Virus record (IMG/VR): IMGVR_UViG_3300028549_002200
Strand: one strand, 5' to 3'
Origin: a virus
Length of the DNA: 50,224 bases
Below the pieces are notes generated by a model. That model worked only from the letters and a program-made list of their open reading frames with translations, searched no databases and was not told where the DNA came from. Below, one piece after another: positions 1 through 48,809 of this stretch. The number at the start of each line of letters is the position of its first letter. Position 1 is the stretch's first letter. The translations under genes and the position numbers were made by a program.

Positions 1-200
1 GTCAAAAATCTGTGGTGAAGCCTTGGTACCATTTTACCAAAGGCTATGATATCTTCTTTGATTTTTCCTAAAACAATTTCTCCGTCGAGTTTTACGAGTT
101 CTCGCTTGTCTTTTGAAAGATATTCTTTTATATTCTTGAATATCTTTTCTGATAGCTCTTCTCCGATTTGCTCATCGAGTTTTTCTTTTTCTGTTTTCAT
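1..200 (-). CDS. Duplicate partial copy (5' part) of the 100-aa hypothetical gene annotated at 49867..50169
   Basis: Lies inside the terminal repeat. The start codon at 200..198 corresponds to 50169..50167. Confidence 0.5.
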   Translation of the reverse strand, partial: MKTEKEKLDEQIGEELSEKIFKNIKEYLSKDKRELVKLDGEIVLGKIKEDIIAFGKMVPRLHHRFL

Positions 201-255
201 GACATACTCACCATCTTTAACATCATAAGTATTGACATAATTGTCAACACCACAA
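1..255. repeat. Left copy of an exact 255-bp direct repeat, identical to 49970..50224. Likely a circular or circularly permuted assembly overlap; unit genome length 49,969 bp.
   Basis: Base-by-base identity read in the sequence. The ORF-track entries 46..228 and 50015..50197 have identical translations, offset by 49969. The repeat lies inside coding sequence. Confidence 0.9.
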
Positions 256-391
256 TGTCAAATTTCTTTTTAATTGCATACCACATTTTTGATACTCCTT
301 TCTTTATCAAATCTTTCAGTAAATAGATCATTTCCCATGTTTTAATCATGAGAAATCGAATCCCCTCTTGCATTGCCTCCTGATGTTCCAT
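197..391 (-). CDS. Hypothetical 64-aa protein
   Basis: The sequence AAAGGAGGAAG lies 3 nt upstream of the ATG. ATGA start/stop overlap with the next leftward gene. Confidence 0.5.
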   Translation of the reverse strand: MEHQEAMQEGIRFLMIKTWEMIYLLKDLIKKGVSKMWYAIKKKFDIVVLTIMSILMMLKMVSMS

Positions 392-548
392 TTTCTTCCT
401 CCTTTATTGTTAGGTTTTCCATTGTTAGAATAAGAAAATCACCGCCTGTTATTATTTCTGTTTTTACGTTCTGTTTATCATTGTTAAAGAGAAAATCAAA
501 GATGATCGGAGAAAGGATATATATTGTTTTTTCCGGTGGGTAACAGAT

Positions 549-674
549 CTATTGTTCTGTAAGTATTTTATCTGGTATTTTTACAAATTGCCCCGTGTCC
601 GTCGGACACATATAACAAGTTTTACTGTCAATACATGTAATGTCGCATCTTTGGATTTGTTCTTTGTATTCCAT
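549..674 (-). CDS. Hypothetical 41-aa Cys-rich peptide (MEYKEQIQRCDITCIDSKTCYMCPTDTGQFVKIPDKILTEQ)
   Basis: Translated by hand; it is below the ORF-track size cutoff. AAGGAAG lies upstream of the ATG. Contains four Cys as CxxxC and CxxC. Confidence 0.3.
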   Translation of the reverse strand: MEYKEQIQRCDITCIDSKTCYMCPTDTGQFVKIPDKILTEQ

Positions 675-685
675 TTTTTACTTCC

Positions 686-937
686 TTATGGTCTTTCAAA
701 AACTCTATCATATTCTAAGTGATGTTTTTGGCATAACAATCTGAGGTTTTGGATATCAGAATTGTTCCCATGTCTCATGTGTGCTACCGTCAAAATAACT
801 CTTGTTCCATTTGGTAATATCTCGTAATTTTTTACATCGCACCACTGACATTTATTATTATAAAACGATTTCATGAAAATAACAATTTCCTTCCAACATT
901 TCGGATAGTTTTTTTTATTTTTCGGTTTTATTGGCAT
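686..937 (-). CDS. HNH endonuclease
   Basis: The sequence CQWCDVKN...TVAHMRHGNNSDIQNLRLLCQKHHLEYD fits the HNH/His-Me finger pattern (CxxC, H, N, CxxHH). Confidence 0.8.
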   Translation of the reverse strand: MPIKPKNKKNYPKCWKEIVIFMKSFYNNKCQWCDVKNYEILPNGTRVILTVAHMRHGNNSDIQNLRLLCQKHHLEYDRVFERP

Positions 938-1586
938 CTTGTAATGTCTTTCCGAATGGCATTCCGTTAGGGTGTGTGCATATGATTAATAATTTTTCAT
1001 AACCTATCCATGATGGAAAATCGTTTTTCATACAAACCCCATCATAGTCCTGAGCCGTAATTTCCGTTGCTTTTCCTGTTTCTCGTATTATCAACCGCTT
1101 TCCTAATAAATGATCTTCTTTCGTGTATGGCGTTACCTGATATTTTAGGCGATCGTAAAACAACAAAGGCCGCACATTATAGCTTAATAAATATTCTTTT
1201 GAATATACTTCTTCGGATGTTGTAGGGTTATTATATTTGCTAAAACTTTGTGTGTTTCCGTATTTTCCATTATAATACAATACTTTTGAATGTCCGCCTA
1301 TAGTTACTTCGCACATGGTTCCTTGTGGTATCTTGTCCCAATCATACAAGCAAAGCTTGTTATTCTTTGATATAATTTCTAATTGATTGTAATTAAACCA
1401 TCCCATCACTTTTTTTTCCGTTTTAACAAGGCAATAATCCGTTTCGTCTACTTCGATTATTATACCAATATCTCCGGCTTCAATCCAGTTTCTTGATGCT
1501 TTTTTCTTTTTATTAATTCTTACTTTGACACCTTTTTTGTAGTTGCTTTTCTGGTAATGTTCTTTTACTAATTCTTTTATTTCCAT
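915..1586 (-). CDS. Hypothetical protein, 223 aa
   Basis: Start moved to the internal MEIKELV codon, which has GGAGGA upstream and lies 2 nt after the preceding stop. Co-oriented with the operon. Confidence 0.6.
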   Translation of the reverse strand: MEIKELVKEHYQKSNYKKGVKVRINKKKKASRNWIEAGDIGIIIEVDETDYCLVKTEKKVMGWFNYNQLEIISKNNKLCLYDWDKIPQGTMCEVTIGGHSKVLYYNGKYGNTQSFSKYNNPTTSEEVYSKEYLLSYNVRPLLFYDRLKYQVTPYTKEDHLLGKRLIIRETGKATEITAQDYDGVCMKNDFPSWIGYEKLLIICTHPNGMPFGKTLQDANKTEK

Positions 1587-1588
1587 GT

Positions 1589-1834
1589 TTATTCCTCCTC
1601 TGGTTTTCTTTTTTTGTTCATCATCTTTTTGGTTATCTTTATAACTTTGCCGTATAATTCTTGTGCGCACTCACGACATAGGTCAAGTTTGTGAGAGCAT
1701 TGTAAAGCAGGATGACGCTTGAAGTCTATAAAGACTGATTCAATCGCATCTGTCCAATGGCGTTTTACTTTATCATCGGAACGGTATTCGACATGACATA
1801 TATCACACTTGTTTACTAAATATTCTTTCTTCAT
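1589..1834 (-). CDS. Small zinc-finger protein, 81 aa, treble-clef/RING-like ligand spacing
   Basis: Ligand pattern is CDIC (C10, C13), then C46-x-H48, then C53-x2-C56, followed by a basic tail. Confidence 0.55.
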   Translation of the reverse strand: MKKEYLVNKCDICHVEYRSDDKVKRHWTDAIESVFIDFKRHPALQCSHKLDLCRECAQELYGKVIKITKKMMNKKRKPEEE

Positions 1835-1839
1835 ATTTA

Positions 1840-2151
1840 TTACCTCTTATAATCTGTGAATCGTTTAGTCCGCAGTAATTCAAGAGCCTTGTTACTCGTT
1901 GCCATATACATTATGTTAAGACTGACAACATCCTTAACTCCGTCGTCATATCCGAGTTGGTATGCAGATTGCTTTGCTTCTGACAAAGCCGTGTCGTATT
2001 CTGTTTTTATTTTAGCAACCTCCTTTTTGTATATCGACACGTATGCATGCTTCTCTATTGCAAGCATTGTAAAAAAATATGCAATCGAAAGTAATACAAT
2101 AATGCCGGCGGATATCATTGTCCTTAAAAGAGTGTCAAAACTAATCTTCAT
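1840..2151 (-). CDS. Small membrane protein, 103 aa, one N-terminal TM helix
   Basis: Start moved to MKISFDTLL, which has AAAGGAG upstream. Hydrophobic segment ISAGIIVLLSIAYFFTMLAI. Confidence 0.6.
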   Translation of the reverse strand: MKISFDTLLRTMISAGIIVLLSIAYFFTMLAIEKHAYVSIYKKEVAKIKTEYDTALSEAKQSAYQLGYDDGVKDVVSLNIMYMATSNKALELLRTKRFTDYKR

Positions 2152-2167
2152 ATGCTTCTCCTTTCTG

Positions 2168-3880
2168 TTACCATTGTTCTTCGTCCCACTTTTCATCTTG
2201 GTTCGACTGTACAAGTCTTGGGAATTCGTTTAGTGAAACTACTTCCTCATAAATAGGAGCATACACAAGATATTCTATTGATTCAGTCAAAAGCGTTTCC
2301 GGTATTAATGTTTTTAGTATTATATCTGATAATAGTTTGCCTGAATAATAATTACAATATTCCGTCTTGAATTTTGTTTCTATTTCTTTTCCGATGTCTT
2401 TTAACTGACAATATGCTGAGCCAAGATTCCATTTTTCTAATCTGTCTTCATATTCCTCTTTTACAAGACTGAATCCTGTTTGTTTGCTTTCGTTTATATC
2501 TCCTTGACAGAAGTTTCCATATCCATATTGGATTTTTCTTATTCTGTCATTGTTTGGGAATGGAAATGTGAATTGTATAATGTCATTTTGTCTTAAAGTG
2601 ACATGAGGCCTTAGATTTATGTTTGGGACAGCAAAAGACGATTGGTATCTTATTCTTGGGTTTATTTTTTTCACTAATACACTGTTATTAAAAAAGAAAT
2701 CATATAAATCGGTATTGTTATTATTTTCTAAGACATCTTTTTTAAATAAAACATTTTCCGTATATAATTCGTCAATAAGTCTATGAAAGCTCGTCCTGTC
2801 TTTTTCAGAAAATTTTTTGTATAATTCACTGTTTTCATCACATATTTCGTTTAAAATTTCATGTATTTCTAATTGAAGATTTTTGTTTAATCTTGTATAA
2901 ACATCGTATGTTATTAACGGTATTTTTACAAGAACATTTGCTGAAAACGTGCCTCCGTTACCAATGCTTACATGTGGCTTGGTTATAAAATTCATGTCTG
3001 TATTTAATTCTATGAATATTATTTCGGGAGCATACGATTTATTGATTTTATAAACAGTGTCCGAATCTTCATACAAATTAATTGTTTTTAACATTGGCAT
3101 AATGAAAGTTTTAACGCTTCTTGTAGTAATCTGATCTATTTCTTTTTGTGGATGTTCGTTTTTCCAATCGTCTTGTCCTTGCATGTGTAATAAAATTAAT
3201 TTTCTTATATCTGTGTATTCTATGTTGTTTCCAATGATGAAGTCTTGTAATCTGTTGGCAACAACTTGTTCCCTTGACACATCGTTTTCTATCATTTGTT
3301 TTGCTTCTTCCATTTCACGTTTTATTTCTTGTCTTGTTTTTACCTCTTTGATTAATAAGCCTTTCACGATTTCTTTTGTGTCAGGGTCTATTTGCGGTGC
3401 TTTTAAAACAGGCATTTCGTGCGTGATAAATTTAATTTCAGTTTCGATTTTAAAGAACTGTCCAAAAGTTAATATTACGGAAAAAATGTAATGGAACAAT
3501 GAATTTTCTGCAAAGCCATCATGAACATTAAGACGCACTTTGTTTTTTGTCAAAATAAGAACAGTTATTTGTTGAAGATAATTTTCTTGTCTTAAATTAT
3601 CTCCTTTGACTGGAGTTCTTAATGCTTTGATAAATATTGTCCCACCTAATATTTCTGTCACAAAGCTTAAATGGATTAAGTCTCCCGTCATTCCATAACC
3701 AAATTCACGAGTATTAGAGGTGTTAATTTTGAATATTCCGTCCCAATTTGACAGTGTCTCTTCAAGCATTTCGTGTATCTTTTCTATTCCCGACTGATTT
3801 AATTGCACTGATTTTTTTTCGAACATATAATAATTGTCATATGTGTTCATTACCCGATTATCTCTTCCAATTAATAACAT
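2168..3880 (-). CDS. Hypothetical 570-aa protein in the E1-like/JAB operon
   Basis: AAAGGAG upstream of the ATG. Starts 16 nt after the E1-like stop codon. No motif recognised by eye. Confidence 0.7.
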   Translation of the reverse strand: MLLIGRDNRVMNTYDNYYMFEKKSVQLNQSGIEKIHEMLEETLSNWDGIFKINTSNTREFGYGMTGDLIHLSFVTEILGGTIFIKALRTPVKGDNLRQENYLQQITVLILTKNKVRLNVHDGFAENSLFHYIFSVILTFGQFFKIETEIKFITHEMPVLKAPQIDPDTKEIVKGLLIKEVKTRQEIKREMEEAKQMIENDVSREQVVANRLQDFIIGNNIEYTDIRKLILLHMQGQDDWKNEHPQKEIDQITTRSVKTFIMPMLKTINLYEDSDTVYKINKSYAPEIIFIELNTDMNFITKPHVSIGNGGTFSANVLVKIPLITYDVYTRLNKNLQLEIHEILNEICDENSELYKKFSEKDRTSFHRLIDELYTENVLFKKDVLENNNNTDLYDFFFNNSVLVKKINPRIRYQSSFAVPNINLRPHVTLRQNDIIQFTFPFPNNDRIRKIQYGYGNFCQGDINESKQTGFSLVKEEYEDRLEKWNLGSAYCQLKDIGKEIETKFKTEYCNYYSGKLLSDIILKTLIPETLLTESIEYLVYAPIYEEVVSLNEFPRLVQSNQDEKWDEEQW

Positions 3881-3895
3881 ATTTTTCTCCTTTTG

Positions 3896-5245
3896 TTAAA
3901 ATGGTAATTGCTCTTCTATTTGATCAAATGTTTTGGCTTCTATGATTTTTTTTACGCTTGTCAAAAATAACGTATTTAAGTCTTGCTCTTGATGTCGTGC
4001 GAATAAAGATAATTTTTTATATTCTTCGAAATCAAAACACGATGCCTGTTCATAGGCGATCTTATTTTCTTTAATTTCGCATATAGATTCTTTTAGCTTT
4101 TTAAATGCTATTTCTATATTATTCAAAGCATCTACTGTTGCGTATTGCTTGGTTGCATTATCTACATAGTCCATGTCCAGTTCGTCAAGGTCATTGATGA
4201 TAAAATCATCAAACTGGTCAAGAAATGTTGGTTCAGGACACAGGTCTTCGCTTACCGCAACCCTGATTTTTAATATCTCGATTAAGTCTCTTGCTTTTTG
4301 AATATTCTGGTTTATTAGCAAAGAAACTATAATCATTAAAACATTTCGAAGAGTTCTCGTGTCAACGATTAGGTTAAATGCGCTTTTCAAAAAAGATTCT
4401 TCTGCTAATTCTTCATCATAAGCAAGACGTCTTATTAAATTTGACCAAAATATATTTTCACGGAAATTCTTTTCCGGCAAAAAAGGATTAAACGTTTTCA
4501 TTTTATGAAAATTAATTTTCAGTTCCGGGAATGACATTGATTTTGTATACTCGAAAATTCCGTCAGGCACATCAATGCTTTCATAAAATGTTTCTTTTTC
4601 ATTTCTGACAAAATTTTGTAACATTTCGTTTTCTGCTTTTAACAACTTCCAATAATATGCACCGGCCACAACAGAACTGATCGAAGTTCTTGGTTGAAGA
4701 TAATTTACCTGCATTCCTGTATTTACCCACAAAGAATCAAGATTTCTTGCCGGGAAAAGCTTAAAGCTTTCCCCGTCATACCCAAACGACAATAAACTTG
4801 TTGCATAGTCGTTGTTTTTGAATGTTTCTTCAAGTATCAACATGTCCGATGCGTCTCTCCCCTCTATTATATACACACCGTTGTCCCATGATACCTTGTT
4901 CATAAATCCTTCTTTTGCTCTTTCGAAGAATGGTTTTATTGTCACTAATGGTCTTTGTTTAAGGCCTCGCTTGTATCGATCTCCGATCATGCTTATTATA
5001 TAATCCTTGAATGCCAAAACCTTTGGTAATCCCACGTTAGATGGATTCGCATAAGCAAGCGTTTCTATGTTTTTTCTTGAAACAATATCATCGTCAAACA
5101 ATGTGATAATTATGTTCTTCGAAGAGTGTCTGACGGGGTTTAATATCACGTCTTTTACAAAATGATATGCTACTTGCGATGATAAGCTCCCACATCCTAT
5201 GAATACATAAGAATCACACATTATTCCCGTTTTACAATTTATCAT
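3896..5245 (-). CDS. ThiF/MoeB/E1-like adenylyltransferase superfamily protein, divergent
   Basis: N-terminal Rossmann signature VFIGCGSLSS (GxGxxS). It is followed by ITLFDDDIVSRKNI, which matches the ThiF pattern D-x-D-x-V-x3-N-L/I position for position. VGLPKVLAFKDYI and IIEGRDASD follow in the expected order. The canonical RQ pair is absent. Confidence 0.6.
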   Translation of the reverse strand: MINCKTGIMCDSYVFIGCGSLSSQVAYHFVKDVILNPVRHSSKNIIITLFDDDIVSRKNIETLAYANPSNVGLPKVLAFKDYIISMIGDRYKRGLKQRPLVTIKPFFERAKEGFMNKVSWDNGVYIIEGRDASDMLILEETFKNNDYATSLLSFGYDGESFKLFPARNLDSLWVNTGMQVNYLQPRTSISSVVAGAYYWKLLKAENEMLQNFVRNEKETFYESIDVPDGIFEYTKSMSFPELKINFHKMKTFNPFLPEKNFRENIFWSNLIRRLAYDEELAEESFLKSAFNLIVDTRTLRNVLMIIVSLLINQNIQKARDLIEILKIRVAVSEDLCPEPTFLDQFDDFIINDLDELDMDYVDNATKQYATVDALNNIEIAFKKLKESICEIKENKIAYEQASCFDFEEYKKLSLFARHQEQDLNTLFLTSVKKIIEAKTFDQIEEQLPF

Positions 5246-5256
5246 TTTATTCTCCT

Positions 5257-6762
5257 TTATTCTTGGAAAAATCCCGACAAACCATCGTAGCTATCTCGAT
5301 TGTTTGTTGCCAATGTCTTTTTATAGCTATCTTTATATAGCTCGCTGTATTTCGTTTCGTATGTATACGTTTTTTCTTTTATGTTTTCAATTCCGTCAAC
5401 CTGTATTTCTGAGGTTACATTTATCACAAATGCATTTTTGTCAAGAAGCAAGTAGTCTGAGTCCGAGAGCTTGACTTGATAGCTTAGATCGCATAATTGT
5501 GCATCTGAGTTGAATAATATCGAGAGATCATGGTTTTCGTTTATTGTCCTTCTGTCTGTGGTTGAAAATGATGTTGATCCTCCTCCCGGATGTGTGTGTA
5601 TTATTGCATACATATCTGGTATTTTCGTTGAGTCGTCGATGTAGTTTACTGCTGCTGCTGAGTTTTCCTGTTTTGGTATGATGTATTTTCTGTCTCCGTC
5701 AATGTCCATGACTTCTATTTCTAACCCATTTACTTTATACGGAACAAAAATAGATATTTCTATTCTTTTTCCTGTTTTTTCAAGGCATTTCCTTACTATT
5801 TTGACGACATTATCGTCAATGGACATTTTCATTTTAGGTTCTATTTTAATTCTATGATTTGTCCATTCTAACTCTTCTTCTTTGATTAGCGCGGTTTGTC
5901 CGTATTCTTTTTCATTTCCATTTCCATTTTCATTGTTTAATTTATCAAACAATTCGTTTCCATGTTCTATCATGTCAAAGATTTCTATTTCAGTTTCTTG
6001 CGAAAATTCTATTAACTCGTCACTTAGAAATAATTGTAATTCGTCTGCGTTGTTCTTTGTGAAAAAATCCATAAGGATATCTTTTTGTTCTGTCTCTGCT
6101 ACAAATTCTCCATATCCAAGATCTTTGATGTGTTTGTCTAAAGTCATTTCTGATCCTGTTCCTGATATTGTTTCTACTGGAGATTGAAATCCGTTATACA
6201 GTATCATAAGTTCAAGGGTGAACATTGTTATAAGTTTCGCGGGTAGGCTCTTTTCCGTAAGCAGCCCTCTTATTATGCTTATTTCATTTGAAAGTATTGA
6301 AAATGTTTGTGCTGCGTATTCTCCTAATAACGCATTGTATATGCCCTGTGCCTCTATATTTGTTTGCTCTGCTATTTTGCTGATTGTCTTGATCATTATT
6401 AAACACAATAGTATTGTCATTCTTTTTCTTGAAAACCACTCAGAATTGAACATGTCTTTTGGTTTGTAGTTAAAATCATTAACTTGCTTGTACATGCTTT
6501 GACAGATTAACCCTGTATTGCATTTTACTTTTTGCTTTTTTAATATTTCGCAGATTGTTGTCGTGAAGGCATATGCAATTTCCATCATAACCATATTGAC
6601 CGATGTTGTGTGTCTTCCCGGTTCTGTTATTTTTTTAATGTCTTTCATTGCGTAATATTTTACCCCCATTGTCCCTAAAACAAGTTTCACTGATGCGCTT
6701 GTTGTATCTTGTTTTCCCTTTAATACTTCAATGCATGTAGGTTCAGTTAATAATGTATACAT
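5257..6762 (-). CDS. Protein with a C-terminal JAB/MPN (JAMM) metallo-isopeptidase-like domain, 501 aa
   Basis: IIHTHPGGGSTSFSTTD reads as H-x-H-x8-S-x2-D, one residue longer than canonical JAMM. An upstream Glu is available in RIEISIF. The N-terminal ~320 aa are unassigned. Confidence 0.6.
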   Translation of the reverse strand: MYTLLTEPTCIEVLKGKQDTTSASVKLVLGTMGVKYYAMKDIKKITEPGRHTTSVNMVMMEIAYAFTTTICEILKKQKVKCNTGLICQSMYKQVNDFNYKPKDMFNSEWFSRKRMTILLCLIMIKTISKIAEQTNIEAQGIYNALLGEYAAQTFSILSNEISIIRGLLTEKSLPAKLITMFTLELMILYNGFQSPVETISGTGSEMTLDKHIKDLGYGEFVAETEQKDILMDFFTKNNADELQLFLSDELIEFSQETEIEIFDMIEHGNELFDKLNNENGNGNEKEYGQTALIKEEELEWTNHRIKIEPKMKMSIDDNVVKIVRKCLEKTGKRIEISIFVPYKVNGLEIEVMDIDGDRKYIIPKQENSAAAVNYIDDSTKIPDMYAIIHTHPGGGSTSFSTTDRRTINENHDLSILFNSDAQLCDLSYQVKLSDSDYLLLDKNAFVINVTSEIQVDGIENIKEKTYTYETKYSELYKDSYKKTLATNNRDSYDGLSGFFQE

Positions 6763-6766
6763 TTTG

Positions 6767-7003
6767 TTATCCTTTCGTTTGGTTTAGCTCGAGCCACATG
6801 ATCAAACCTTTCATCAAACCGAGGTTAAAGGCATCTAATTCCTCCTTTGTTTTGAATTCTGCGAGTTTGTATTCTTCATTGCTTGGTTTTTCTTTGTCTT
6901 TATATACAAGCAATGCCACGTTATCCTTGTTGTAATAAGTAAAGCATGGAATAAGCGTGCTTAAAATTCCGCTTATTGCTTCGTCGATGGTTACAAACTC
7001 CAT
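6767..7003 (-). CDS. Hypothetical 78-aa protein ending in ...NQTKG (C-terminal Gly)
   Basis: TAGGAGGAC lies 3 nt upstream of the ATG. Its stop codon is 4 nt before the start of the JAB gene. Confidence 0.65.
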   Translation of the reverse strand: MEFVTIDEAISGILSTLIPCFTYYNKDNVALLVYKDKEKPSNEEYKLAEFKTKEELDAFNLGLMKGLIMWLELNQTKG

Positions 7004-7025
7004 TTTGTCCTCCTATTTTTTTTAA

Positions 7026-7058
7026 GGGAGCAGGTTTTTCTGCTCCCTAACCGGTTAG
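7026..7058. promoter_or_regulatory. 8-bp stem hairpin (GGGAGCAG-gttttt-CTGCTCCC) abutting a perfect 12-bp palindrome CTAACCGGTTAG
   Basis: Read directly in the sequence. Sits in the 58-nt gap between the 72-aa gene and the first gene of the E1-like/JAB operon. No U-tract follows it on the transcribed (minus) strand. Confidence 0.5.
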
Positions 7059-7061
7059 GTG

Positions 7062-7280
7062 TTAGTTTCTTGGCTGATCTCTATTCTCGATTACAAGTTC
7101 CTGTATTGTGTCAAATCGTTCTGCAATTTCTCTTGGCGAAACTCGCTCCCCATTGAGTTTCACGTTGTAGTTTTTGATTTTGAGATCAAAGGTTATGTCC
7201 GAAATTGCTGTTTTTAGTTCTTTTATGTCTGCTACGTTTTTGATGTAAGTTTCGTTACCTACTTTAATTTTTAATTCCAT
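7062..7280 (-). CDS. Hypothetical 72-aa protein with a beta-grasp-like (ThiS/MoaD/Ub-like) pattern
   Basis: Start moved to MELKIKV, with AAAGGAG 6 nt upstream. The alternation strand-strand-helix-strand (KLNGERV)-...-strand (ELVIEN) resembles ThiS. The protein ends DQPRN, with no terminal Gly. Confidence 0.55.
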   Translation of the reverse strand: MELKIKVGNETYIKNVADIKELKTAISDITFDLKIKNYNVKLNGERVSPREIAERFDTIQELVIENRDQPRN

Positions 7281-7299
7281 TTTATGCTCCTTTTGTTGG

Positions 7300-7668
7300 T
7301 TAGTTCCATGAATCTTCAAGTGTTGGTTTTGTTGCTTTTGCCGGCTTTGCCTTTTTTGCTCCCCAATTGTCATCTTCTTCCTCTACTTGTTTCTGTCTTG
7401 GTTGTGCTGCTGGCAAAGCTATTCTTTCCGATCCTGATGTGATTGCGTTTTCCGGCTTCTTTCTTGAATCTTTCTCGATTGACAATACGACTCCCGGCAT
7501 ACATGCAAGCGTGATAAAACTTCCTGTTTCGTCTTCTTGCCATGCGATACACTTGTGATTACAGTCTACCATCGGGTTCTTGTGGCACTTTGCCTTGATA
7601 TACCGTCCTGCTTTTACCAAGTTTACGTTGCCTTGTCCGTTCACATACACGTTTTGAATGTTTTCCAT
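7300..7668 (-). CDS. Hypothetical 122-aa protein, 4 Cys, basic C-terminus
   Basis: TAGGAGGG upstream of the ATG. Part of the co-oriented gene array. Confidence 0.55.
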   Translation of the reverse strand: MENIQNVYVNGQGNVNLVKAGRYIKAKCHKNPMVDCNHKCIAWQEDETGSFITLACMPGVVLSIEKDSRKKPENAITSGSERIALPAAQPRQKQVEEEDDNWGAKKAKPAKATKPTLEDSWN

Positions 7669-7669
7669 T

Positions 7670-7918
7670 TTACCCTCCTATTGGGTTTTTTGTTATTTCT
7701 TTGAACTCTTTTGCAACCGTTGGCATTCTCCTTTCTATGGCTACAAGCCGGTATACCAAGATTGCGTGTGGGAACATATCTACGCCTGTTTCTTTTTCTT
7801 TTTCTCTTTCTGTTTGCATTGCTTCTTCGATGTTTTCTGCTTCTATCATTCTTTGTAGCTTGTATTTTGGTTCCTCGTCCCATGTTTCTGTTGCTTTTAT
7901 AATTGCATAGCTTTCCAT
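7670..7918 (-). CDS. Hypothetical 82-aa protein
   Basis: ORF in the co-oriented gene array. Its stop abuts the next start. Confidence 0.5.
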   Translation of the reverse strand: MESYAIIKATETWDEEPKYKLQRMIEAENIEEAMQTEREKEKETGVDMFPHAILVYRLVAIERRMPTVAKEFKEITKNPIGG

Positions 7919-7928
7919 ATTTTACTTC

Positions 7929-8090
7929 TTATCCTTGTATGTATTTGAATCCGTGTTTAGTGAGTGCGCCTATTGCGCTCCATCTTTTAAGACCGATCTG
8001 GTCTTTGATGATGATGATTTTTTTGTCCATGTCAATATCTGCGAATCTTTCAACTCGTCTCAATGCTTCTTTAAAATCTAAGTGTTTCAT
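7929..8090 (-). CDS. Hypothetical 53-aa protein (MKHLDFKEALRRVERF...)
   Basis: Translated by hand. AGGAG lies 5 nt upstream of the ATG. ATGA overlap with the upstream small ORF. Confidence 0.4.
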   Translation of the reverse strand: MKHLDFKEALRRVERFADIDMDKKIIIIKDQIGLKRWSAIGALTKHGFKYIQG

Positions 8091-8248
8091 ATGATCTCCT
8101 TTATTTTATAATACACTCTTTTGGATAATCTTGTTGTTTCCCATATTGCCAATCTTGCTACCTGATATGTTAATGTTACGATGTATGCCACGAAAAATGC
8201 TGTTGCCATTCCCGCCATTATTACAAAAAACAAAGTTATTTCACCCAT
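8087..8248 (-). CDS. Hypothetical 53-aa single-TM peptide (MGEITLFFVIMAGMATAFFVAYIV...)
   Basis: Translated by hand. GGAG lies 8 nt upstream. Overlaps both neighbouring genes. Confidence 0.4.
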   Translation of the reverse strand: MGEITLFFVIMAGMATAFFVAYIVTLTYQVARLAIWETTRLSKRVYYKIKEII

Positions 8249-8588
8249 GACATTTTCTCCTTTTTCTTTGTTTGAACATTATCATTAAGCTTACCACTGC
8301 TGATACGATTGACCCTGCCACCATTCCTGCCAATCCTGTTACTCCGAATAACCATCCGTAAAATACCAAACAAGCTGTTCCCAGTGCAAAGAATCTGAAA
8401 TGCCATACTGCTTTTGCCGCCCATTTTATTCCTTTGATAGACATTGGGATTACTGTGTATATTTCCCATTTTTTTAACTGTATTTTTTCTTTGCTTGCGT
8501 CCTTCCATGCGGCCATTAACTCGCATATATCTATGATCATTGCGAATACCGTTGCTCCGACCGCAATAATCATGAACGTTGCGTTCAT
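8241..8588 (-). CDS. Membrane protein, 115 aa, about 3 TM segments
   Basis: GGAGGTG upstream of the ATG. Hydrophobic segments at the N-terminus and in LGTACLVFYGWLFGVTGLAGMVAGSIVSAVVSLMIMF. Confidence 0.6.
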   Translation of the reverse strand: MNATFMIIAVGATVFAMIIDICELMAAWKDASKEKIQLKKWEIYTVIPMSIKGIKWAAKAVWHFRFFALGTACLVFYGWLFGVTGLAGMVAGSIVSAVVSLMIMFKQRKRRKCHG

Positions 8589-8812
8589 ATAAACACCTCC
8601 GTTCTTGCTATTTCGTTTGAGTCGTGATAACCCGCTTCTTTAGTTACGCGGAACTTGATCTCATAGATCTTTAGTCTATCTTTACCCATTAACTCTTCTT
8701 TGGCACGCCATGAGAAGCAATGTTCTCTCGGCCCGATGAAGAGTTCTGTGAATAATCCTCTTTCTTTGTCTATCCTGCATACGCAGAATTTGGAGAAAGT
8801 ATAGCTCTTCAT
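8585..8812 (-). CDS. Hypothetical 75-aa protein
   Basis: ORF with ATGA overlaps at both ends. Confidence 0.5.
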   Translation of the reverse strand: MKSYTFSKFCVCRIDKERGLFTELFIGPREHCFSWRAKEELMGKDRLKIYEIKFRVTKEAGYHDSNEIARTEVFI

Positions 8813-9069
8813 TTTAGATCTTCTCTCTCTATGTTAGAAATTATCCCTTTGATTTTTTCCAACTGTACTTGGTTGATTGCAAGCGTTATTGCATTTACGA
8901 ATGATTGTGCCATTGTTTCTGCCTGTTCTTTATCATTCGCGATCACTGTCATATCCATTTCTTCTCTATCGATATACGCTATCAGCCTTACTTGCGGGGT
9001 CATTTCCAAGCCCGCATCGCCTGTTTCAGCGATCTCTCCATCTATGATTTCAAAATATTTCATCGTCAT
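8809..9069 (-). CDS. Hypothetical acidic 86-aa protein
   Basis: Start set at the ATG that has AGGAAG 5 nt upstream; the ORF-track start at 9072 is a GTG. Confidence 0.5.
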   Translation of the reverse strand: MTMKYFEIIDGEIAETGDAGLEMTPQVRLIAYIDREEMDMTVIANDKEQAETMAQSFVNAITLAINQVQLEKIKGIISNIEREDLK

Positions 9070-9307
9070 CACATCTTCCTATTGCTTCGAATATTACTTC
9101 TGCCCATTTTCCTGTTAGCGTATCAACGATGTTTTTTTTCTTTAGGACTGTTATTTCTCCTCCGGCTAAGTCATATCCTTTTGCGTCTCCATTTTCATAG
9201 AGAACGCCTATGATAAAAACGTTATCTCCGTCTTTATCTTTTGCATGCACTAATGCCGGTTCTTGTTTTCCCCTGAATATCCGTTTGAAGTTTTCGATCG
9301 GGTTCAT
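9050..9307 (-). CDS. Hypothetical 85-aa protein
   Basis: Start moved to MNPIENF, which has AAAGGAAGGG upstream. It is the first gene after the 9445..9477 terminator. Confidence 0.55.
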   Translation of the reverse strand: MNPIENFKRIFRGKQEPALVHAKDKDGDNVFIIGVLYENGDAKGYDLAGGEITVLKKKNIVDTLTGKWAEVIFEAIGRCDDDEIF

Positions 9308-9444
9308 TTTACCCTTCCTTTCTGAGATGGTCTGGTCTTCATCTCGATAAGAACAAACGAGAACACACAACAACACAAATAAGTAAGCAGGAAAAAAGGC
9401 TGTTCTCTTGCCAACCAATGGCATTTCTTGCTATCCTTCCCATT

Positions 9445-9477
9445 AAAAAAAAGGGAGAGGGGTTTAATCCTCTCTCT
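9445..9477 (-). terminator. Rho-independent terminator for leftward transcription, possibly bidirectional
   Basis: On the minus strand, a stem GAGAGG/CCTCTC with an 8-nt loop is followed by T8. The plus strand also has a T-rich tract after the stem. Confidence 0.45.
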
Positions 9478-9546
9478 CTTTTTCATTTTCAGTGAATACT
9501 TCTTCAATTTTTTCCAACAACGCTTCGATAATTTTATCTTCCATTT

Positions 9547-9786
9547 TTATTCCTCCTTTCTGAGCTGTTCGTTCAGCTCTTTTTCCACCATGTCTATTGC
9601 GCATGCATAAATATGATCGTCTTGATTATACTCACCTGTCGCTGCTTCGTAGATCCTGTCGTCTACGATTCTACAGGCCACAACTCTAAATGTTCCGTTT
9701 TCTTTTGCTATGATAAAGATCGAGCCGTATTCGCTTATTTTAGTTCCCGGGTATTCTTTACGTAAATATTCTTTTTCCTTTGTCAT
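9547..9786 (-). CDS. Hypothetical 79-aa protein
   Basis: AAGGAG upstream of the ATG. Confidence 0.55.
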   Translation of the reverse strand: MTKEKEYLRKEYPGTKISEYGSIFIIAKENGTFRVVACRIVDDRIYEAATGEYNQDDHIYACAIDMVEKELNEQLRKEE

Positions 9787-9801
9787 TTTTTCTCCTTTTT
9801 A

Positions 9802-9863
9802 AGGGCATTTCTATGATGCCCTCTGTTTTAGAAGATAGGGAGAAGGCGAAGCCGACTCCCTAT
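9802..9863. other. Two adjacent stem-loops: AGGGCAT/ATGCCCT (9802..9822), and ATAGGGAG/CTCCCTAT (9835..9863) with a nested GGC-GAA-GCC element
   Basis: Read directly. They lie between the 105-aa and 79-aa genes. No U-tract follows either on the minus strand. Confidence 0.5.
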
Positions 9864-9870
9864 ATTTCTT

Positions 9871-10188
9871 TTACCACAACTTTGTCTTTTTGACTGCTTT
9901 TGCGTCTTGGCTCTTGGCAAAGGTTACTACCTTTGTCAATTTTAGGGCTGTTAAGATATTATCCACAACTGCCTTATCGACAGTCGGGTCTATTACAACC
10001 TTGACGGTGCTGTTGGCTGCCTCCTTTTTGACGGCCGCGACGAATCTCTCGAGATATTCGTCGGGGACTTCACTGTCTTGTCCCAATGTTACCAGGAGGA
10101 TTCTGTTTCCTAATTGAGAGACTCTCGCCTCTCCACTAAAGAACGTTCTTTGATTCTGTGCCTGAGTGAACAGTAATGTGGTTGCCAT
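9871..10188 (-). CDS. Hypothetical 105-aa protein, first gene of the leftward arm
   Basis: Start moved to MATTLLF, which has GAAAGGAAC upstream. Visibly more GC-rich than its neighbours. Confidence 0.55.
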   Translation of the reverse strand: MATTLLFTQAQNQRTFFSGEARVSQLGNRILLVTLGQDSEVPDEYLERFVAAVKKEAANSTVKVVIDPTVDKAVVDNILTALKLTKVVTFAKSQDAKAVKKTKLW

Positions 10189-10223
10189 ACAAGTTCCTTT
10201 CCGCCATTCTTTCATTCTTTGAT

Positions 10224-10471
10224 GGCTGTTAGGTTCATCAAGCACCATGCCCAATGAACATAGACAAGTAGACAGGAAATAAAAGGCTGTTAGGCTGTCC
10301 GTTATGCCGATGTGTAGGTGTCATCGAGGACATATGATGCGAGGTGGACAAGGGGTTACGGCTGTCGTCCGTCGCTCCTCACGTGAGAACACGGCGTGCT
10401 CTGGTTAAAGGAAGGCTTGAGAGGCTGTCCGTGTTTCCACACCCGACGAAGGAGGGGGGGGAGGGCTGTCC
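10224..10471. repeat. Six dispersed copies of GGCTGT(T/C) in a GC-rich non-coding island
   Basis: Copies at 10224, 10285, 10293, 10360, 10423 and 10464. Four of them extend to GGCTGTC(GT)CC. The island also contains a G8 run at 10454..10461. Confidence 0.7.
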
Positions 10472-10528: not shown

Positions 10529-10854
10529 TTATGTGGTAAAGCGTTTCCCAAGCATGCTTGTATTCTATACTGCTTCCACGTGAGGGCTAAGGAACGAAAA
10601 AAATAAAAAAATGATTTTATTATTTTATAAGGCATCCTTATTAATAAGATATAATACGATATCCTTAATTATATGTTATTAATATTAAGAGCAGGTGTTG
10701 TGCCAAACTGTGTGGTGTAAAATATTTTTTTATCGAATATGTGGATATTGTTATAGATAGGATAAACGGCGGCGGATGTGGTGGTGTCTGATTTTCCAAT
10801 GTTTGACAGGAAGTTGGCAGGAAATGCTCTTGTAAATTATTGATATTGTGGTAG

Positions 10855-10893
10855 TTGCCAATTTTGGCAGAACATGTTGCCGAAATTTGGCAG
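10855..10893. promoter_or_regulatory. Two tandem near-palindromic sites, TTGCCAATTTTGGCAG (10855..10870) and TTGCCGAAATTTGGCAG (10877..10893)
   Basis: Read directly. A half-site TTGGCAG lies at 10814. Related copies lie at 42699..42714, 42749..42767 and 9407..9422. Confidence 0.55.
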
Positions 10894-10922
10894 GGATTGG
10901 CGTGTATATTTTTTATTGGGTA

Positions 10923-10951
10923 TTGACTTAATGGGAGGATGTCGGTATTCT
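10923..10951 (+). promoter_or_regulatory. Sigma70-like promoter candidate for the rightward late block
   Basis: TTGACT, then 17 nt, then TATTCT. Lies about 23 nt upstream of the TerS-like ATG and its GAGGAGAGAGGTG ribosome-binding site. Confidence 0.35.
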
Positions 10952-10973
10952 TTACGAGGAGAGAGGTGATGGC

Positions 10974-11570
10974 ATGGCTAAAAAGGCACCTGTGATTGAC
11001 AGTGAATATTTAGAACTCGATACATTATTAGAAGAGGTAATGGTTGAGTTTGAGACGAATCCGCAATATTTTCAGGCGATGGAAATATTTGTGAAGCGGA
11101 GAATATCATACCGTGATTTCGAGCGGCGGATCGCTAACTACCCGGAAATAAAAAAGAAGATGGATATTTTAGAGGAAATGGAAGAGGCCCGGATAATCGA
11201 GAAAGGCATGCTCCGCAAGGGCGATCCATACATGTCGCAGTTTATTCTCGAAAGAAAATACGGATACAACGAACCGCGGAAAAAGATTAAATCGAGCCGA
11301 GAACTCGTAGAGGACATGATTACTGATGTAGCCGCGCGCAGATCGACGGCCGGTGGTAAATTCGCGGAAGAAGAAGATACTTTCGACATACTTGCGGAAG
11401 GTGGTGATGATGATGACGGAGACGATCTCAGCGATGACGAGCCACTCAATGCAGAAATTGAAGAAGAAACAGCCCGTGGAAAAGCGATTGAAGTTGCCGA
11501 GGACGATTACGACGAAGACGCCGATTTCCAAGCCAGAAAAGTCGCAGCGAATAAAAAGAGTAAGCGATAG
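10974..11570 (+). CDS. terS: Putative terminase small subunit, 198 aa, very acidic C-terminal tail
   Basis: First gene of the rightward block, immediately upstream of TerL. The helical N-terminal half includes FILERKYGY. The call rests mainly on position. Confidence 0.5.
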   Translation: MAKKAPVIDSEYLELDTLLEEVMVEFETNPQYFQAMEIFVKRRISYRDFERRIANYPEIKKKMDILEEMEEARIIEKGMLRKGDPYMSQFILERKYGYNEPRKKIKSSRELVEDMITDVAARRSTAGGKFAEEEDTFDILAEGGDDDDGDDLSDDEPLNAEIEEETARGKAIEVAEDDYDEDADFQARKVAANKKSKR

Positions 11571-29839: not shown

Positions 29840-31417
29840 ATGACTACTTTTGGTGATTCTCTTTTACAGCTTGGAATGACTAAATTCCAAAATTCCTTGG
29901 ATCAAAACAACAAAATATCCATGATCAACACTATGGATGCGTTGCAAAAATCCAAGCTTGACTCTGCTCTTATGCAGACAAAAATAAGATCAGAAGACTT
30001 AAAAAATAAAGCTACTGAAATGGCATTACGTCAAAAAGAAATGACTATGGAGCGTAACGCATATAATGCGTATCAAAAATGGCAGGAAAGTCCTGATAAA
30101 TATAAGCAATATGACAAGTTTTTCAAAGGCGCAGACGAAAAAACCGCGACACAGAATTTTATAACAAACAACCCAAATGCGTCTTTCGGTTTTAACGACT
30201 CGGTGCTTGATCAGTTACAGATGCACTCTGCCCCTATAGTGAATTATGCTACCGGAGAAATCAGCGATAACAATCTTGCGAGTAATCCGAATTTTGATGC
30301 AAGCATGTTGAATGACCCGCGCATAACCAACCAACAGTTTGCTCGACAGGGCAACAAATATGATTGGTCAGATGACTATACAATGACTAACCGCGTGGAC
30401 GCTCAGGGAAGGGAAATGCTTGGCAATTATTCTGAAACGCCAAACATGGATATGTATGCTGCTAATCAACAAGAAGCTTCTCGCAACAAAGCTCTTAAAA
30501 TGCAGCTGCTTGGCAGCAAACCTTCTCTTCCGATCAATCTCAGTGAGATGACACGGACGATTGAGACAAGTGAGCTTTCAAGACAAAAAAAAGATGATCT
30601 TCGTTCATATATAATGACTTATATAAACGCGGTATCGCACAACGATAGTATTGAGGCGCAACATGCTGCACTGGATGGCCTTACACACGGAATTAGAGGC
30701 ATACTTGGAAATCAAGCAAGCGAAGACCTTGTCCAACAACTTAATACTGCTTATGGCGCGATGCAAAAATGGGGCGAAGATATGTCTGCGTGGAAATCTA
30801 TGGGCCAACAAATTGGTGCTACAGGAGAACTTGATCGTGTAATAACAAGCCAGTATGGCGCAGAGAATAAAAGTAACTTAGAAGCACTGAGGCTGACTGC
30901 CGATCAATCAAACATGACCATGGATTTGTCTAAAAATCCTTTATATCAAAAGGTATTTGAACTCAGACAAAAGGCAGACAAAATGGTTAGAAACGAAGCT
31001 GACGACTATGGGATTACTCGCTTTATCAAAGGAGCTTGGAATGAGGTTGTTCCGTCATTTACTCCGACAGAAAGAAAAATCCTTTTTGATGTTTACCAAG
31101 GTGATGTGTCAAAACTGCCGCGGAACACGCGCAAAGATATTGTTAATAAAAGAAACGAAAAAGGTAATATTGAAGAATTTTTTAAATACGGTGCGCAAAA
31201 AACACCATATTATCCGTGGAACGTACCGGAGGACACTCGCTCAAAGTCGCAACTTGATGTATTATTTAACCAAAGCACTTCTGATGAACAGCGCGCCATG
31301 ATTGAGGCTGCAATGAAACACCTCCACAACGAGAACACAGATGGCGACTTTAATGAGTCAAATTTATCGAAATACTATTCCGAGAAAATTAGCGGCAAAT
31401 CGCAAAAGGGGTTCTAA
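29840..31417 (+). CDS. Internal-virion-like coiled-coil protein, 525 aa
   Basis: Position in the block and helical, charged composition. Confidence 0.45.
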   Translation: MTTFGDSLLQLGMTKFQNSLDQNNKISMINTMDALQKSKLDSALMQTKIRSEDLKNKATEMALRQKEMTMERNAYNAYQKWQESPDKYKQYDKFFKGADEKTATQNFITNNPNASFGFNDSVLDQLQMHSAPIVNYATGEISDNNLASNPNFDASMLNDPRITNQQFARQGNKYDWSDDYTMTNRVDAQGREMLGNYSETPNMDMYAANQQEASRNKALKMQLLGSKPSLPINLSEMTRTIETSELSRQKKDDLRSYIMTYINAVSHNDSIEAQHAALDGLTHGIRGILGNQASEDLVQQLNTAYGAMQKWGEDMSAWKSMGQQIGATGELDRVITSQYGAENKSNLEALRLTADQSNMTMDLSKNPLYQKVFELRQKADKMVRNEADDYGITRFIKGAWNEVVPSFTPTERKILFDVYQGDVSKLPRNTRKDIVNKRNEKGNIEEFFKYGAQKTPYYPWNVPEDTRSKSQLDVLFNQSTSDEQRAMIEAAMKHLHNENTDGDFNESNLSKYYSEKISGKSQKGF

Positions 31418-31418
31418 G

Positions 31419-42681: not shown

Positions 42682-42698
42682 ATTTCTGCCGTTCCTTT

Positions 42699-42767
42699 CT
42701 GCCAAATTTGGCAAGTTGTTATTATTTGATAAATTACCAATCCCTTTTCTGCCAAATTATTGCCAAT
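42699..42767. promoter_or_regulatory. Two further copies of the TTGCCAAATTTGGCAG-type motif (42699..42714 and 42749..42767)
   Basis: Both copies share the 13-mer TTTCTGCCAAATT. GCCAAATTTGGC is a perfect 12-bp palindrome. The proximal copy abuts the ribosome-binding site of the 42681 gene. Confidence 0.55.
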
Positions 42768-43317: not shown

Positions 43318-43319
43318 AT

Positions 43320-44689: not shown

Positions 44690-44692
44690 TTT

Positions 44693-47860: not shown

Positions 47861-47869
47861 ATTTCCTCC

Positions 47870-48767: not shown

Positions 48768-48809
48768 ATTTCCTCCTATGTTTTCGTTGACGTTATTATA
48801 CATGAAGCA

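Follow-up and report, generated by a model that had tools for sequence, protein, structure and literature searches.

Can a bacteriophage encode its own machinery for activating and processing a ubiquitin-like modifier? The question is raised by two adjacent genes on IMG/VR virus record IMGVR_UViG_3300028549_002200, a DNA of 50,224 nucleotides (nt) that is referred to here, over its whole length, as the window. One gene encodes a protein with a JAB-type metalloprotease domain, and the other a protein with an adenylation domain of the type found in ThiF and in ubiquitin-activating (E1) enzymes. On the sequence evidence presented below, we put the chance at slightly better than even that this pair is the recognizable core of a phage-encoded system for ubiquitin-like (Ubl) activation and processing. 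The two proteins, with positions in amino acids (aa), are the following.

5257..6762, minus strand: 501-aa protein, with an orphan N-terminus (aa 1 to ~273) and, C-terminal to it (aa 274-501, nt 5260-5943), a JAMM/MPN+ (JAB) metalloprotease domain
3896..5245, minus strand: 449-aa protein, in which a ThiF/E1-type adenylation domain (aa 12-204, nt 4634-5212) precedes a predicted-helical orphan C-terminus (aa ~205-449)

The coordinates and lengths of the two open reading frames (ORFs) and the 11 nt between them are exactly those given in an earlier note on this DNA, and the motifs that it quoted (VFIGCGSLSS, a ThiF-type D-x-D-x-V-x3-N-[LI] string, and a JAMM string) are all present in the ORFs to which it had assigned them. 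Across the six-frame ORFs of at least 60 aa (25,974 aa), regular expressions for the JAMM and ThiF motifs matched once each, both in these adjacent genes. The mean number of matches in 200 shuffled ORF sets was 0.1 (JAMM) and 0.0 (ThiF), and a chance origin of the motif pair is effectively excluded. As had also been noted, the genes lie in a tight leftward operon running from 7003 to 686, with spacings of 4, 11, 15, and 5 nt or short overlaps; a terminator scan predicted no minus-strand terminators between 9455 and 356. The 11-nt gap between the JAB and E1-like genes holds a strong Shine-Dalgarno site, taaAGGAGaataaaATG. The description of the genes as translationally coupled was not borne out. 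Because each gene has a strong ribosome-binding site of its own, what the sequence supports is co-transcription of the 501-aa and 449-aa genes within a compact operon, and not coupled translation.

The C-terminal domain of the 501-aa protein carries the JAMM string HTHPGGGSTSFSTTD at aa 389-403, and its predicted catalytic residues (E335, H389, H391, S400, and D403) make up a complete E...HxH...SxxD site. When the concatenated 449-aa and 501-aa sequences were searched exhaustively with HMMER against 1.84 billion representatives, 143 non-self relatives came back (E values 1e-56 to 1e-3), all of which align only within aa ~273-497; for the N-terminal region of ~273 aa the same search found zero relatives. 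The invariant columns of a 59-sequence JAB alignment are E335, P363, Q365, H389, H391, S400, and D403 (E62, P90, Q92, H116, H118, S127, and D130 in domain numbering). Pfam Prok-JAB matches 23 of the 59 family members at E ≤ 0.01 (best 6.1e-5), and by sequence the window JAB family is a divergent sister group of Prok-JAB rather than a curated member of it.

An AlphaFold2 (AF2) model of the JAB domain, computed from the 59-sequence alignment, has a mean predicted local distance difference test (pLDDT) score of 82.5, with a core above 90. Foldseek comparison of this model with the Protein Data Bank (PDB) gave 118 matches at E ≤ 0.001, starting from 2e-6 with probability 1.00. Every one of the best 50 of these 118 is an MPN fold, and nearly all are JAMM isopeptidases acting on ubiquitin or Ubl proteins; those listed include Rpn11, the archaeal Rpn11 homolog, AMSH/STAMBP, CSN5, BilC (8tyx_B), and BubCD (9ea4), while a few are catalytically inactive MPN paralogs (CSN6, Prp8 Jab1). 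Compared with predicted viral structures, the model was matched best by MPN proteins of uncultivated gut phages, including crAss-like viruses. The MPN-fold model and the complete JAMM site agree with the earlier proposal of a JAB domain at this C-terminus. PDB sequence searches with the 449-aa and 501-aa proteins returned noise only, and PHROGs contained no match for the pair.

For the 449-aa protein, a word-indexed search found no relative, and neither the whole protein nor its C-terminal half had one in the exhaustive HMMER search. Its N-terminus contains VFIGCGSLSS (aa 14-23) and DDDIVSRKNI (aa 51-60, fitting D-x-D-x-V-x3-N-I), with G17, G19, S22, D51, D53, N59, K75, D131, and Y182 as its key residues. 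The top three NCBIfam matches are all E1-type (6A-MBL Cap2-like, PRTRC ThiF, and ThiF; aa 12-88, E ~0.1). ThiF profiles for scoring the protein were built without it, from the viral loci bearing JAB relatives that are described below. A 7-member profile scored it at 29.5 bits (profile positions 26-193, aa 12-196), as against 10.3 bits for the best of 3,000 shuffles and 7.9 bits for the best other window ORF, and a 17-member profile gave 37.2 bits with a per-sequence E value of 1.3e-13 over aa 12-204. Recruitment of the protein into a ThiF profile by jackhmmer was discarded, as its inclusion was self-reinforcing, and the query-free profiles were used instead. Searched against the PDB, the viral ThiF profile found, among the matches listed, chains of the E1 superfamily only and no dehydrogenases, with E values down to 1e-22: MccB (1.1e-22), ThiF (2.4e-21), MoeB (8e-21), TcdA, UBA1/5/6/7, Uba4, NAE, SAE2, and Cap2 (2e-14). 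The query-free scores sustain the ThiF/E1-like assignment made earlier, and the alternative considered with it, an NAD(P)-dehydrogenase, did not materialize among the PDB matches listed. Homology of the N-terminus to ThiF/E1 adenylation domains, and not to NAD(P)-dehydrogenases, is supported by these comparisons.

In an 18-sequence ThiF alignment, D53, N59, K75, and D131 are invariant and G17, G19, and D51 nearly so, and the 449-aa protein has all seven. In E1/ThiF enzymes these positions bind ATP and Mg, and on the strength of their retention in this alignment the nucleotide site looks functional. The protein contains zero Cys from aa 19 to 335, that is, to ~130 residues beyond the adenylation domain. 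The viral ThiF family has no conserved Cys either, and two of its members are wholly Cys-free. A crossover-loop Tyr is conserved in the viral ThiFs (GY..TPS) and has its counterpart here in VNYLQPR. Because it lacks both a crossover-loop Cys and the Arg of the NLxR motif, the 449-aa protein is probably an adenylating enzyme of the ThiF/MoeB/BubCD type and not a canonical thioester-forming E1. The E1 proposal of the earlier note is thus upheld at the Asp, Asn, Lys, and Asp of the ATP site, which are kept, and not at the Arg and the crossover-loop Cys, which are missing.

Is the pair peculiar to this genome? Loci encoding relatives of the JAB domain were retrieved, and 20 distinct loci bear this JAB family (handles beginning with L are used where single loci or contigs are named). 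A ThiF gene adjoins or sits near the JAB gene in 18 of the 18 loci with enough flanking sequence; in the other two of the 20, the contig breaks off at JAB. ThiF usually precedes JAB, the genes overlapping or abutting, and among the viral-contig neighbor ORFs of JAB, 7 of 38 are ThiFs (Pfam E values down to 1.2e-27). The family is marked by the signature E...IPxQ...HxHP...FSxxD...S-L beside a short Cys-less ThiF, and the window shows both. Neighbors of the related cassettes include genes for helicase, primase, SbcCD, ribonucleotide reductase, and MCM. The JAB family is nearly absent from 185,579 species genomes, with one match, on a 16-kb contig of a metagenome-assembled genome, and essentially missing from PHROGs, where 1 of 59 members matched. 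Four JAB-family members used as tblastn queries had no match in ~50,000 deposited phage genomes, a viral ThiF query gave trivial matches only there, and megablast with the operon and tblastn with the E1-like protein found no match. By these searches the JAB family looks virus-restricted, being found almost only in viral and metagenomic contigs. Conservation of the operon, a point raised with the original prediction of an E1-JAB pair, accordingly holds for JAB-ThiF in viral and metagenomic contigs and fails for the deposited phage genomes. As judged from sequence, the JAB-ThiF(-E2-Ubl) viral cassette is previously unlisted and recurrent, and the pair is not a one-off.

The related loci encode further components. 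Neighborhood clustering identified a 330-500-aa protein that is encoded upstream of ThiF in 10 of 18 related cassettes and whose C-terminal domain has the signature HPN-x(7-24)-C-x-G-[DE]...N-x-D-S-x-Y. A profile of this family gave 69 PDB matches at E ≤ 10, and 57 of the 60 listed are ubiquitin-conjugating (E2) enzymes aligned on the HPN...Cys site; the individual E values run from 0.036 to ~1, and Pfam UQ_con matches two of nine members (best E = 7.6e-4). On this sequence resemblance the family is taken as E2-like. A small ThiS-like protein of 70-90 aa, the putative Ubl, is present in at least nine related loci. Its pattern is ...ING...F...G..I.P...LEI.PYE[VE]AG or ...YNAPKG, and it ends at the Gly or with 1-4 extra residues. 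The Ubl is fused to the N-terminus of ThiF in L005 (6512-7873, 453 aa) and to a C-terminal Zn-ribbon-like segment in L016 (3874-4272(-)). Since the E2-like protein and the ThiS-like Ubl recur with JAB-ThiF, the viral loci appear to encode a Ubl-E2-E1-JAB set.

Four of nine viral Ubls have Lys at the position of the conserved C-terminal Gly (..YNAPKG.., ..YSAPKQ, ..YNAPKVS, and ..YHEAKQ; the loci are L002:6360-6596, L003:4968-5195, L010:2190-2429, and L012:4404-4649). Two of these four are without any Gly near the C-terminus, which is unusual for a conjugatable Ubl.

Partners of the same kind were sought in the window operon, which is transcribed in the order 72-aa ORF (7062-7280), hairpin (7026-7047), 78-aa ORF (6767-7003), orphan-JAB gene, E1-orphan gene, and 570-aa ORF, followed by a 124-aa membrane-like ORF, an 81-aa Cys/His-rich ORF, a 251-aa ORF, and an HNH ORF. 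The features that concern us are the following.

7062..7280, minus strand: 72-aa ORF, MELKIKVGNETY...NGERVSP...ELVIENRDQPRN, the true start of a '103-aa' ORF; weak ThiS-like Ubl candidate
7026..7047, minus strand: perfect 8-bp GC-rich hairpin, GGGAGCAG-aaaaac-CTGCTCCC, separating the 72-aa ORF from the 78-aa ORF and not followed by a U-tract
6767..7003, minus strand: 78-aa orphan protein, 4 nt upstream of the JAB gene, ending ...LIMWLELNQTKG (...NQTKG) with a free C-terminal Gly
2168..3880, minus strand: 570-aa orphan protein, candidate divergent E2-like protein, in which aa 412-495 (nt 2396-2647) carry FPN-x14-C-Q-G-D-x24-NLGSAY
1589..1834, minus strand: 81-aa Cys/His-rich protein, C-x2-C-x42-C-x-H-x4-C-x2-C, two genes downstream of the 570-aa gene
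686-937, minus strand: small HNH endonuclease, the last operon gene, with PHROG matches down to 1.8e-7

A concatenated search found no relatives of the 570-, 103-, 78-, 124-, 81-, 251-, and 122-aa proteins. The listed segment of the 570-aa protein aligns to the viral E2-like signature, HPN...C-x-G-[DE]...N-x-D-S-x-Y, and with 6.6-8.9 bits against the E2-like profile this protein ranks top of 169 real window ORFs (next, 4.3). This score was reached by 12 to 30 of 10,000 shuffles (p ~0.001), which is no more than suggestive of an E2-like partner. Its gene has a strong ribosome-binding site 15 nt past the E1-like stop codon. The earlier statement that there was neither a cGAS/DncV-like nucleotidyltransferase (CD-NTase) nor a recognizable E2 therefore stands in its first part, for the operon proteins, and is softened in its second by this weak motif. 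The 72-aa ORF, with the ribosome-binding site aaaGGAGcataaaATG ahead of its ATG at 7280, is likewise top of the 169 real ORFs when scored with the viral Ubl profile (8.2 bits; 7 of 5,000 shuffles as high, p ~0.001). The 78-aa protein is a possible modifier or adaptor because of its free C-terminal Gly. We treat the 72-, 78-, and 570-aa ORFs as leads to partners of the system, not as identifications.

The hairpin at 7026-7047 was not called by the terminator scan; it may be an element of RNA processing or attenuation that sets different levels of the small proteins and the enzymes. The 81-aa protein has a sub-threshold match to Pfam zf-RING_2 (E = 0.0036), and, speculatively, it could act with the cassette as a treble-clef or RING-like protein, or it may have no connection with it. 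A minus-strand terminator is predicted at 356-330, just past the HNH gene.

Three contigs are closely related to the window. The closest JAB relative, P0003, is 52% identical and lies on the 948-bp contig L024 (JGI Ga0565083_078384). About 14 nt past it, and so in the same order as in the window, is an E1-like homolog, MLQRTNNRLYD*YVIIGCGSLGAQMAYHLVKDIL..., which matches MINCKTGIMCDSYVFIGCGSLSSQVAYHFVKDVIL... of the window. This homolog (L024:791-948) is interrupted at codon 12, a Ser codon in the window, by an in-frame TGA, which could reflect a sequencing error, decay to a pseudogene, or recoding of TGA by that phage. The European Nucleotide Archive (ENA) contig L001 (k141_134770, sample ERZ27248460) is 99.8% identical to window 4753 to ~7285, a stretch that includes the 78-aa gene, and unrelated thereafter. 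Because the identity stops ~6 nt upstream of the ATG at 7280 (junction region window ~7281-7295; L001:1-60), the start of the 72-aa ORF is fixed at 7280. The position of the junction at this start suggests a mosaic unit that travels as a whole and takes in everything from the 72-aa ORF to the E1-like gene, at the least. Internally, L001 and the window differ at two positions, each a non-synonymous change in the JAB gene: W300R, which affects a Trp that is nearly invariant, and H411Q. A comparison for purifying selection was uninformative with these two differences only, the remaining mismatch being the mosaic junction. A second contig of the same sample, L025, is 99.9% identical to window 3627-4611, but starts with 231 nt that are unrelated to the window and look non-coding. 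This places the break within the E1-like gene, at ~aa 212 (window ~4611) and at the boundary of the adenylation domain and the orphan region, and could be assembly chimerism or a real rearrangement at a domain boundary.

In the mechanism that we propose, the 449-aa protein, a minimal Cys-less ThiF/E1-type enzyme, would bind ATP and adenylate the C-terminus of a small protein encoded in the operon, for which the 72-aa and 78-aa ORFs are the candidates. The modifier would be handed on, possibly via the Cys of the 570-aa protein, whose C-terminal part is the candidate E2-like partner. The 501-aa protein, as an active-type JAMM/MPN+ metalloprotease, would trim the C-terminus of the modifier, strip the modifier from targets, or do both. 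Expressed from the leftward non-structural block, the cassette would tag host, own, or rival-phage proteins during infection; such are the substrate, conjugation step, target, and biological role that we infer. The domain identities, the conserved catalytic residues, the recurrent gene pairing, and the viral setting are what the analysis itself shows. By sequence, the window version is an extremely diverged cassette whose partners are weakly recognizable. A broader proposal, which we offer tentatively and with somewhat more doubt than belief, is that tailed viruses of bacteria, and possibly of archaea, encode a complete machinery of Ubl, HPN-Cys E2, minimal Cys-less E1, and JAMM protease, that this forms a lineage apart from Bil, Bub, and the cyclic-oligonucleotide-based antiphage signaling system (CBASS), that it tags proteins of hosts or competitors, and that the present phage has a highly diverged version with new accessory domains.

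A number of observations weigh against a phage-encoded activation and processing system. Both domains were matched by their Pfam families, as the earlier note had expected, and both matches stay under the gathering scores: ThiF on the 449-aa protein with E = 0.029 over aa 47-84 (13.9 bits against a 28.1-bit cut-off), and Prok-JAB (PF14464) on the 501-aa protein with E = 0.0046 (17.3-18.8 bits against a 25-bit gathering cut-off). The single-sequence AF2 model of the 449-aa protein is unusable (pLDDT 35.5) and lends the E1 fold no support. PADLOC defense models matched neither the 501-aa and 449-aa proteins nor the four operon proteins between the 78-aa ORF and the HNH gene, and gave weak endonuclease matches for the terminal HNH ORF only. 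Neither candidate modifier of the window is convincing. Scored with the viral Ubl profile, the 78-aa ORF comes out as dissimilar (-2.1 bits, hhalign P = 0.85), and the 72-aa ORF (hhalign P = 0.039) ends in ...QPRN, with no C-terminal Gly. The hhalign comparison of the 570-aa protein with the E2-like family gives a weak signal (P = 0.0019, probability 14.6%), and the His of HPN is replaced (FPN). Within the adenylation domain, the P-loop is GxGxxS, with S22 in place of the third Gly, and the NLxR Arg is gone (N59-I-E-T); since both are missing, adenylation by the 449-aa protein is not assured. To these are added the relatives that have no E2 and those that lie beside PP-loop or QueC-like genes, which are taken up below.

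The loss of the Arg finger and of the third Gly could also be read as decay. The E1-like domain would then be inactive, a mere scaffold for a JAB protease that processes some phage or host protein. Such a relic would fit the extreme divergence of the protein, with no direct match among 1.84 billion proteins, its long orphan extensions, its barely recognizable partner genes, and the in-frame TGA of the L024 homolog. We nevertheless consider it very unlikely. The four invariant ATP- and Mg-binding residues and the crossover-loop Tyr are kept, and the Arg, although present in most viral ThiFs (NLNR), is also missing from other family members, namely L020 (NLPAQ) and the second ThiF of L011 (NLPYL). 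The gene itself is intact and preceded by a strong ribosome-binding site, and contigs of another assembly match it at 99.8-99.9% identity.

A different chemistry is suggested by the relatives. L005, L007-L009, L022, and L023 are E2-less, and the cassettes of L005 and L011 have PP-loop or QueC-like genes nearby; with such relatives, sulfur-carrier chemistry is a possibility. On this view the E1 would not conjugate at all. It would instead form a carrier thiocarboxylate, as in ThiS-ThiF, CysO-MoeZ-Mec+, and TtuB-TtuC, or nucleotidylate a peptide in the manner of MccB, and JAB would trim the carrier; the reaction would yield a modified nucleic acid, a cofactor, or a toxic peptide-nucleotide. Like ThiF, MoeB, and MccB, which are also the best PDB matches of the ThiF family profile, the E1 is without a catalytic Cys; the viral Ubls resemble ThiS; and Asn is the last residue of the 72-aa ORF, as it might be of an MccB-like substrate. 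Non-conjugating chemistry is nonetheless quite unlikely in our judgment: the E2-like protein with its conserved Cys, present in 10 of 18 related cassettes, has no equivalent in sulfur-carrier or MccB systems, the Cys-less E1 of BubCD does conjugate proteins, and Pfam and NCBIfam scans of the window operon revealed no rhodanese, cysteine desulfurase, ThiG/CysM-type acceptor, or MccB peptide-clamp domain.

Some neighborhoods have features of their own. In L011, a 563-aa protein encoded directly 3' of JAB (8156-9847) combines an amidotransferase with a QueC-like PP-loop protein (PHROG E values 3.5e-30 and 2.3e-17), and a second divergent, Arg-less ThiF lies at 10588-11193, ~2.6 kb past the JAB gene; this neighborhood may link some cassettes to nucleobase modification. 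In three E2-less loci, a conserved neighbor of ~290 aa (cluster c17) is encoded directly upstream of ThiF (L007:5146-6039, L008:6089-6988, and L009:5990-6850). It is probably behind the Zeta_toxin and AAA_33 Pfam matches, each seen for three members in a batch scan that does not tell which members these are.

A third possibility is that the pair serves counter-defense and needs no phage modifier. The JAB protease would strip host Ubl immune conjugates, such as the Bil Ubl on tail proteins or cGAS conjugated by Cap2, and the E1-like protein would act as a decoy or sequester the host modifier. Bil and type II CBASS do rely on such conjugation, the fold matches of the JAB model include the immune deubiquitinases (DUBs) BilC (8tyx_B) and BubCD, the genes sit in a non-structural block beside replication and recombination genes, and the window has no convincing Ubl or E2. 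However, the JAB-ThiF pairs of the relatives have Ubl and E2-like genes of their own, a decoy would have no need of the ATP- and Mg-binding residues that the E1 keeps, and the pair shows no sequence similarity to the PADLOC models of Cap3, BilC, or Cap2. We consider counter-defense unlikely, and because the relatives carry their own Ubl and E2-like genes, an autonomous conjugating system is favored over a pure eraser.

The genome that carries the pair, that of an uncultivated phage, contains phage hallmark genes (terminase, portal, major head protein, DnaB-like helicase, Erf, and a RecE-like exonuclease). An exact direct terminal repeat of 255 bp (window 1-255 = 49970-50224) indicates that the window is a complete phage genome with ~49.97 kb of unique sequence. 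On a circular map, the leftward blocks 686-10254 and 41471-50169 are joined. The two halves of the genome are split compositionally, the leftward non-structural blocks (1-10000 and 42000-50000) having 31-39% GC and negative GC skew and the rightward structural block (10000-40000) 38-44% GC and positive skew. In the late region, a single ORF of 2,371 aa at 31341-38456(+), which could encode a giant tail, fiber, or virion-associated protein, is followed by one of 992 aa.

Ubl conjugation by Bil, Bub, and type II CBASS is currently viewed as host anti-phage immunity, and eukaryotic viruses encode ubiquitin ligases and deubiquitinases. If a virus-borne Ubl-E2-E1-JAB cassette is real, phages would themselves wield conjugation chemistry, in parallel to eukaryotic viruses, and Ubl conjugation would be a weapon for both sides of the phage-host conflict. 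The viral E1 would be a second, independent case, after BubCD, of a Cys-less E1 paired with a JAB peptidase. Unlike in Bub, it would be coupled to a Cys-type E2, and how the modifier passes from the adenylate to the E2 is then a mechanistic question. The window version, in which the E1-like protein has no direct relatives, would illustrate how far such systems drift while their catalytic residues persist.

How does the cassette compare with known systems? That no phage operon of this composition had been described, as the earlier note supposed, agrees with the searchable literature, which is incomplete and leaves most subscription-journal papers outside it: no phage-encoded E1/JAB cassette was found described there. 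The previously described phage JAB-Ubl case is the tail-assembly JAB of lambdoid and T1 phages (gpK), linked to the Ubl-like gpI (Iyer et al. 2006). It differs from the window pair in having no E1, in belonging to a tail gene cluster, and in the fusion of its JAB to NlpC/P60, whereas the window pair lies in a non-structural leftward block together with an E1-type enzyme.

Type II CBASS also combines an E1-type adenylation domain with a JAB isopeptidase (Cap2/Cap3), and the ThiF profile does match Cap2 in the PDB. A scan of the operon proteins, which did not extend exhaustively to other parts of the genome, found no CD-NTase, no Cap2 E2-E1 fusion, and no match to PADLOC Cap2/Cap3; the sole trace of Cap2 in the operon is the insignificant 6A-MBL Cap2-like match (E = 0.09). 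The CysO-MoeZ-Mec+ and QbsCDE systems resemble the viral cassette in their small single-domain E1, their ThiS-like carrier, and a JAB that trims the carrier C-terminus (Iyer, Burroughs & Aravind 2006, PMC1779556), and ThiF, MoeB, and MccB supply the best PDB sequence matches of the viral ThiF profile. These systems are set apart by the absence of detected sulfur-transfer or acceptor enzymes from the window operon, by the E2-like protein of the relatives, by the missing NLxRQ Arg of the 449-aa protein, and by the viral context.

The closest parallels are in Bub and Bil. In BubCD, in which JAB and E1 are fused, the E1 crossover loop is without a catalytic Cys and has Tyr as its sole invariant residue (Ye, Gong, Chambers & Corbett, bioRxiv 2024, PMC11601596), and this Cys-less E1 still drives protein conjugation (PMC11601596). 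This E1 of Bub Type I is minimal and of the homodimer type; its lack of a crossover-loop Cys and its crossover Tyr recur in the viral ThiFs and the 449-aa protein, and BubCD ranks third among the structural matches of the window JAB model. In contrast to the fused BubCD, the window has separate genes, JAB then E1, 11 nt apart, with large orphan extensions that show no internal similarity to each other. The Bub modifier is made as a Ubl-E2 fusion (BubAB) and passes through oxyester (Ser) intermediates, whereas the viral E2-like family keeps HPN...Cys; Pfam and NCBIfam scans of the operon proteins found neither a Ubl-E2 fusion nor a DUF6527/BubE serine protease. Bub operons are moreover bacterial and lie in mobile or defense loci, while the window cassette is in a virus genome, and BubCD falls outside the best 60 PDB sequence matches of the viral ThiF profile.

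BilABCD, a bacterial ISG15-like anti-phage system of Types I and II, shares with the viral relatives the separate genes for Ubl, E2, JAB DUB, and E1. In Type II BilA, a conserved Gly is followed by a few residues that are trimmed by the JAB DUB BilC (Hor et al. 2023/2024; Chambers et al. 2023/2024), and the viral Ubls have the same Gly plus few residues; the complex of BilC with Ubl, 8tyx_B, comes sixth among the fold matches of the window JAB model. The differences lie in the E1, which in BilD is a large IAD-AAD-CYS protein and in the viruses a single ~200-aa domain without Cys, and in the E2, which in Type II BilB is without HPN and in the viral E2-like proteins resembles canonical UBC enzymes at HPN...Cys. 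Bil is also a host defense and not a virus-encoded cassette, and the PADLOC Bil models match no protein of the window pair. Judged by the features that define these systems, the window cassette is not Bil, Bub, or CBASS. Taken by analogy, the viral cassette works most like a hybrid, with the gene set of Bil and a Cys-less E1 like that of BubCD.

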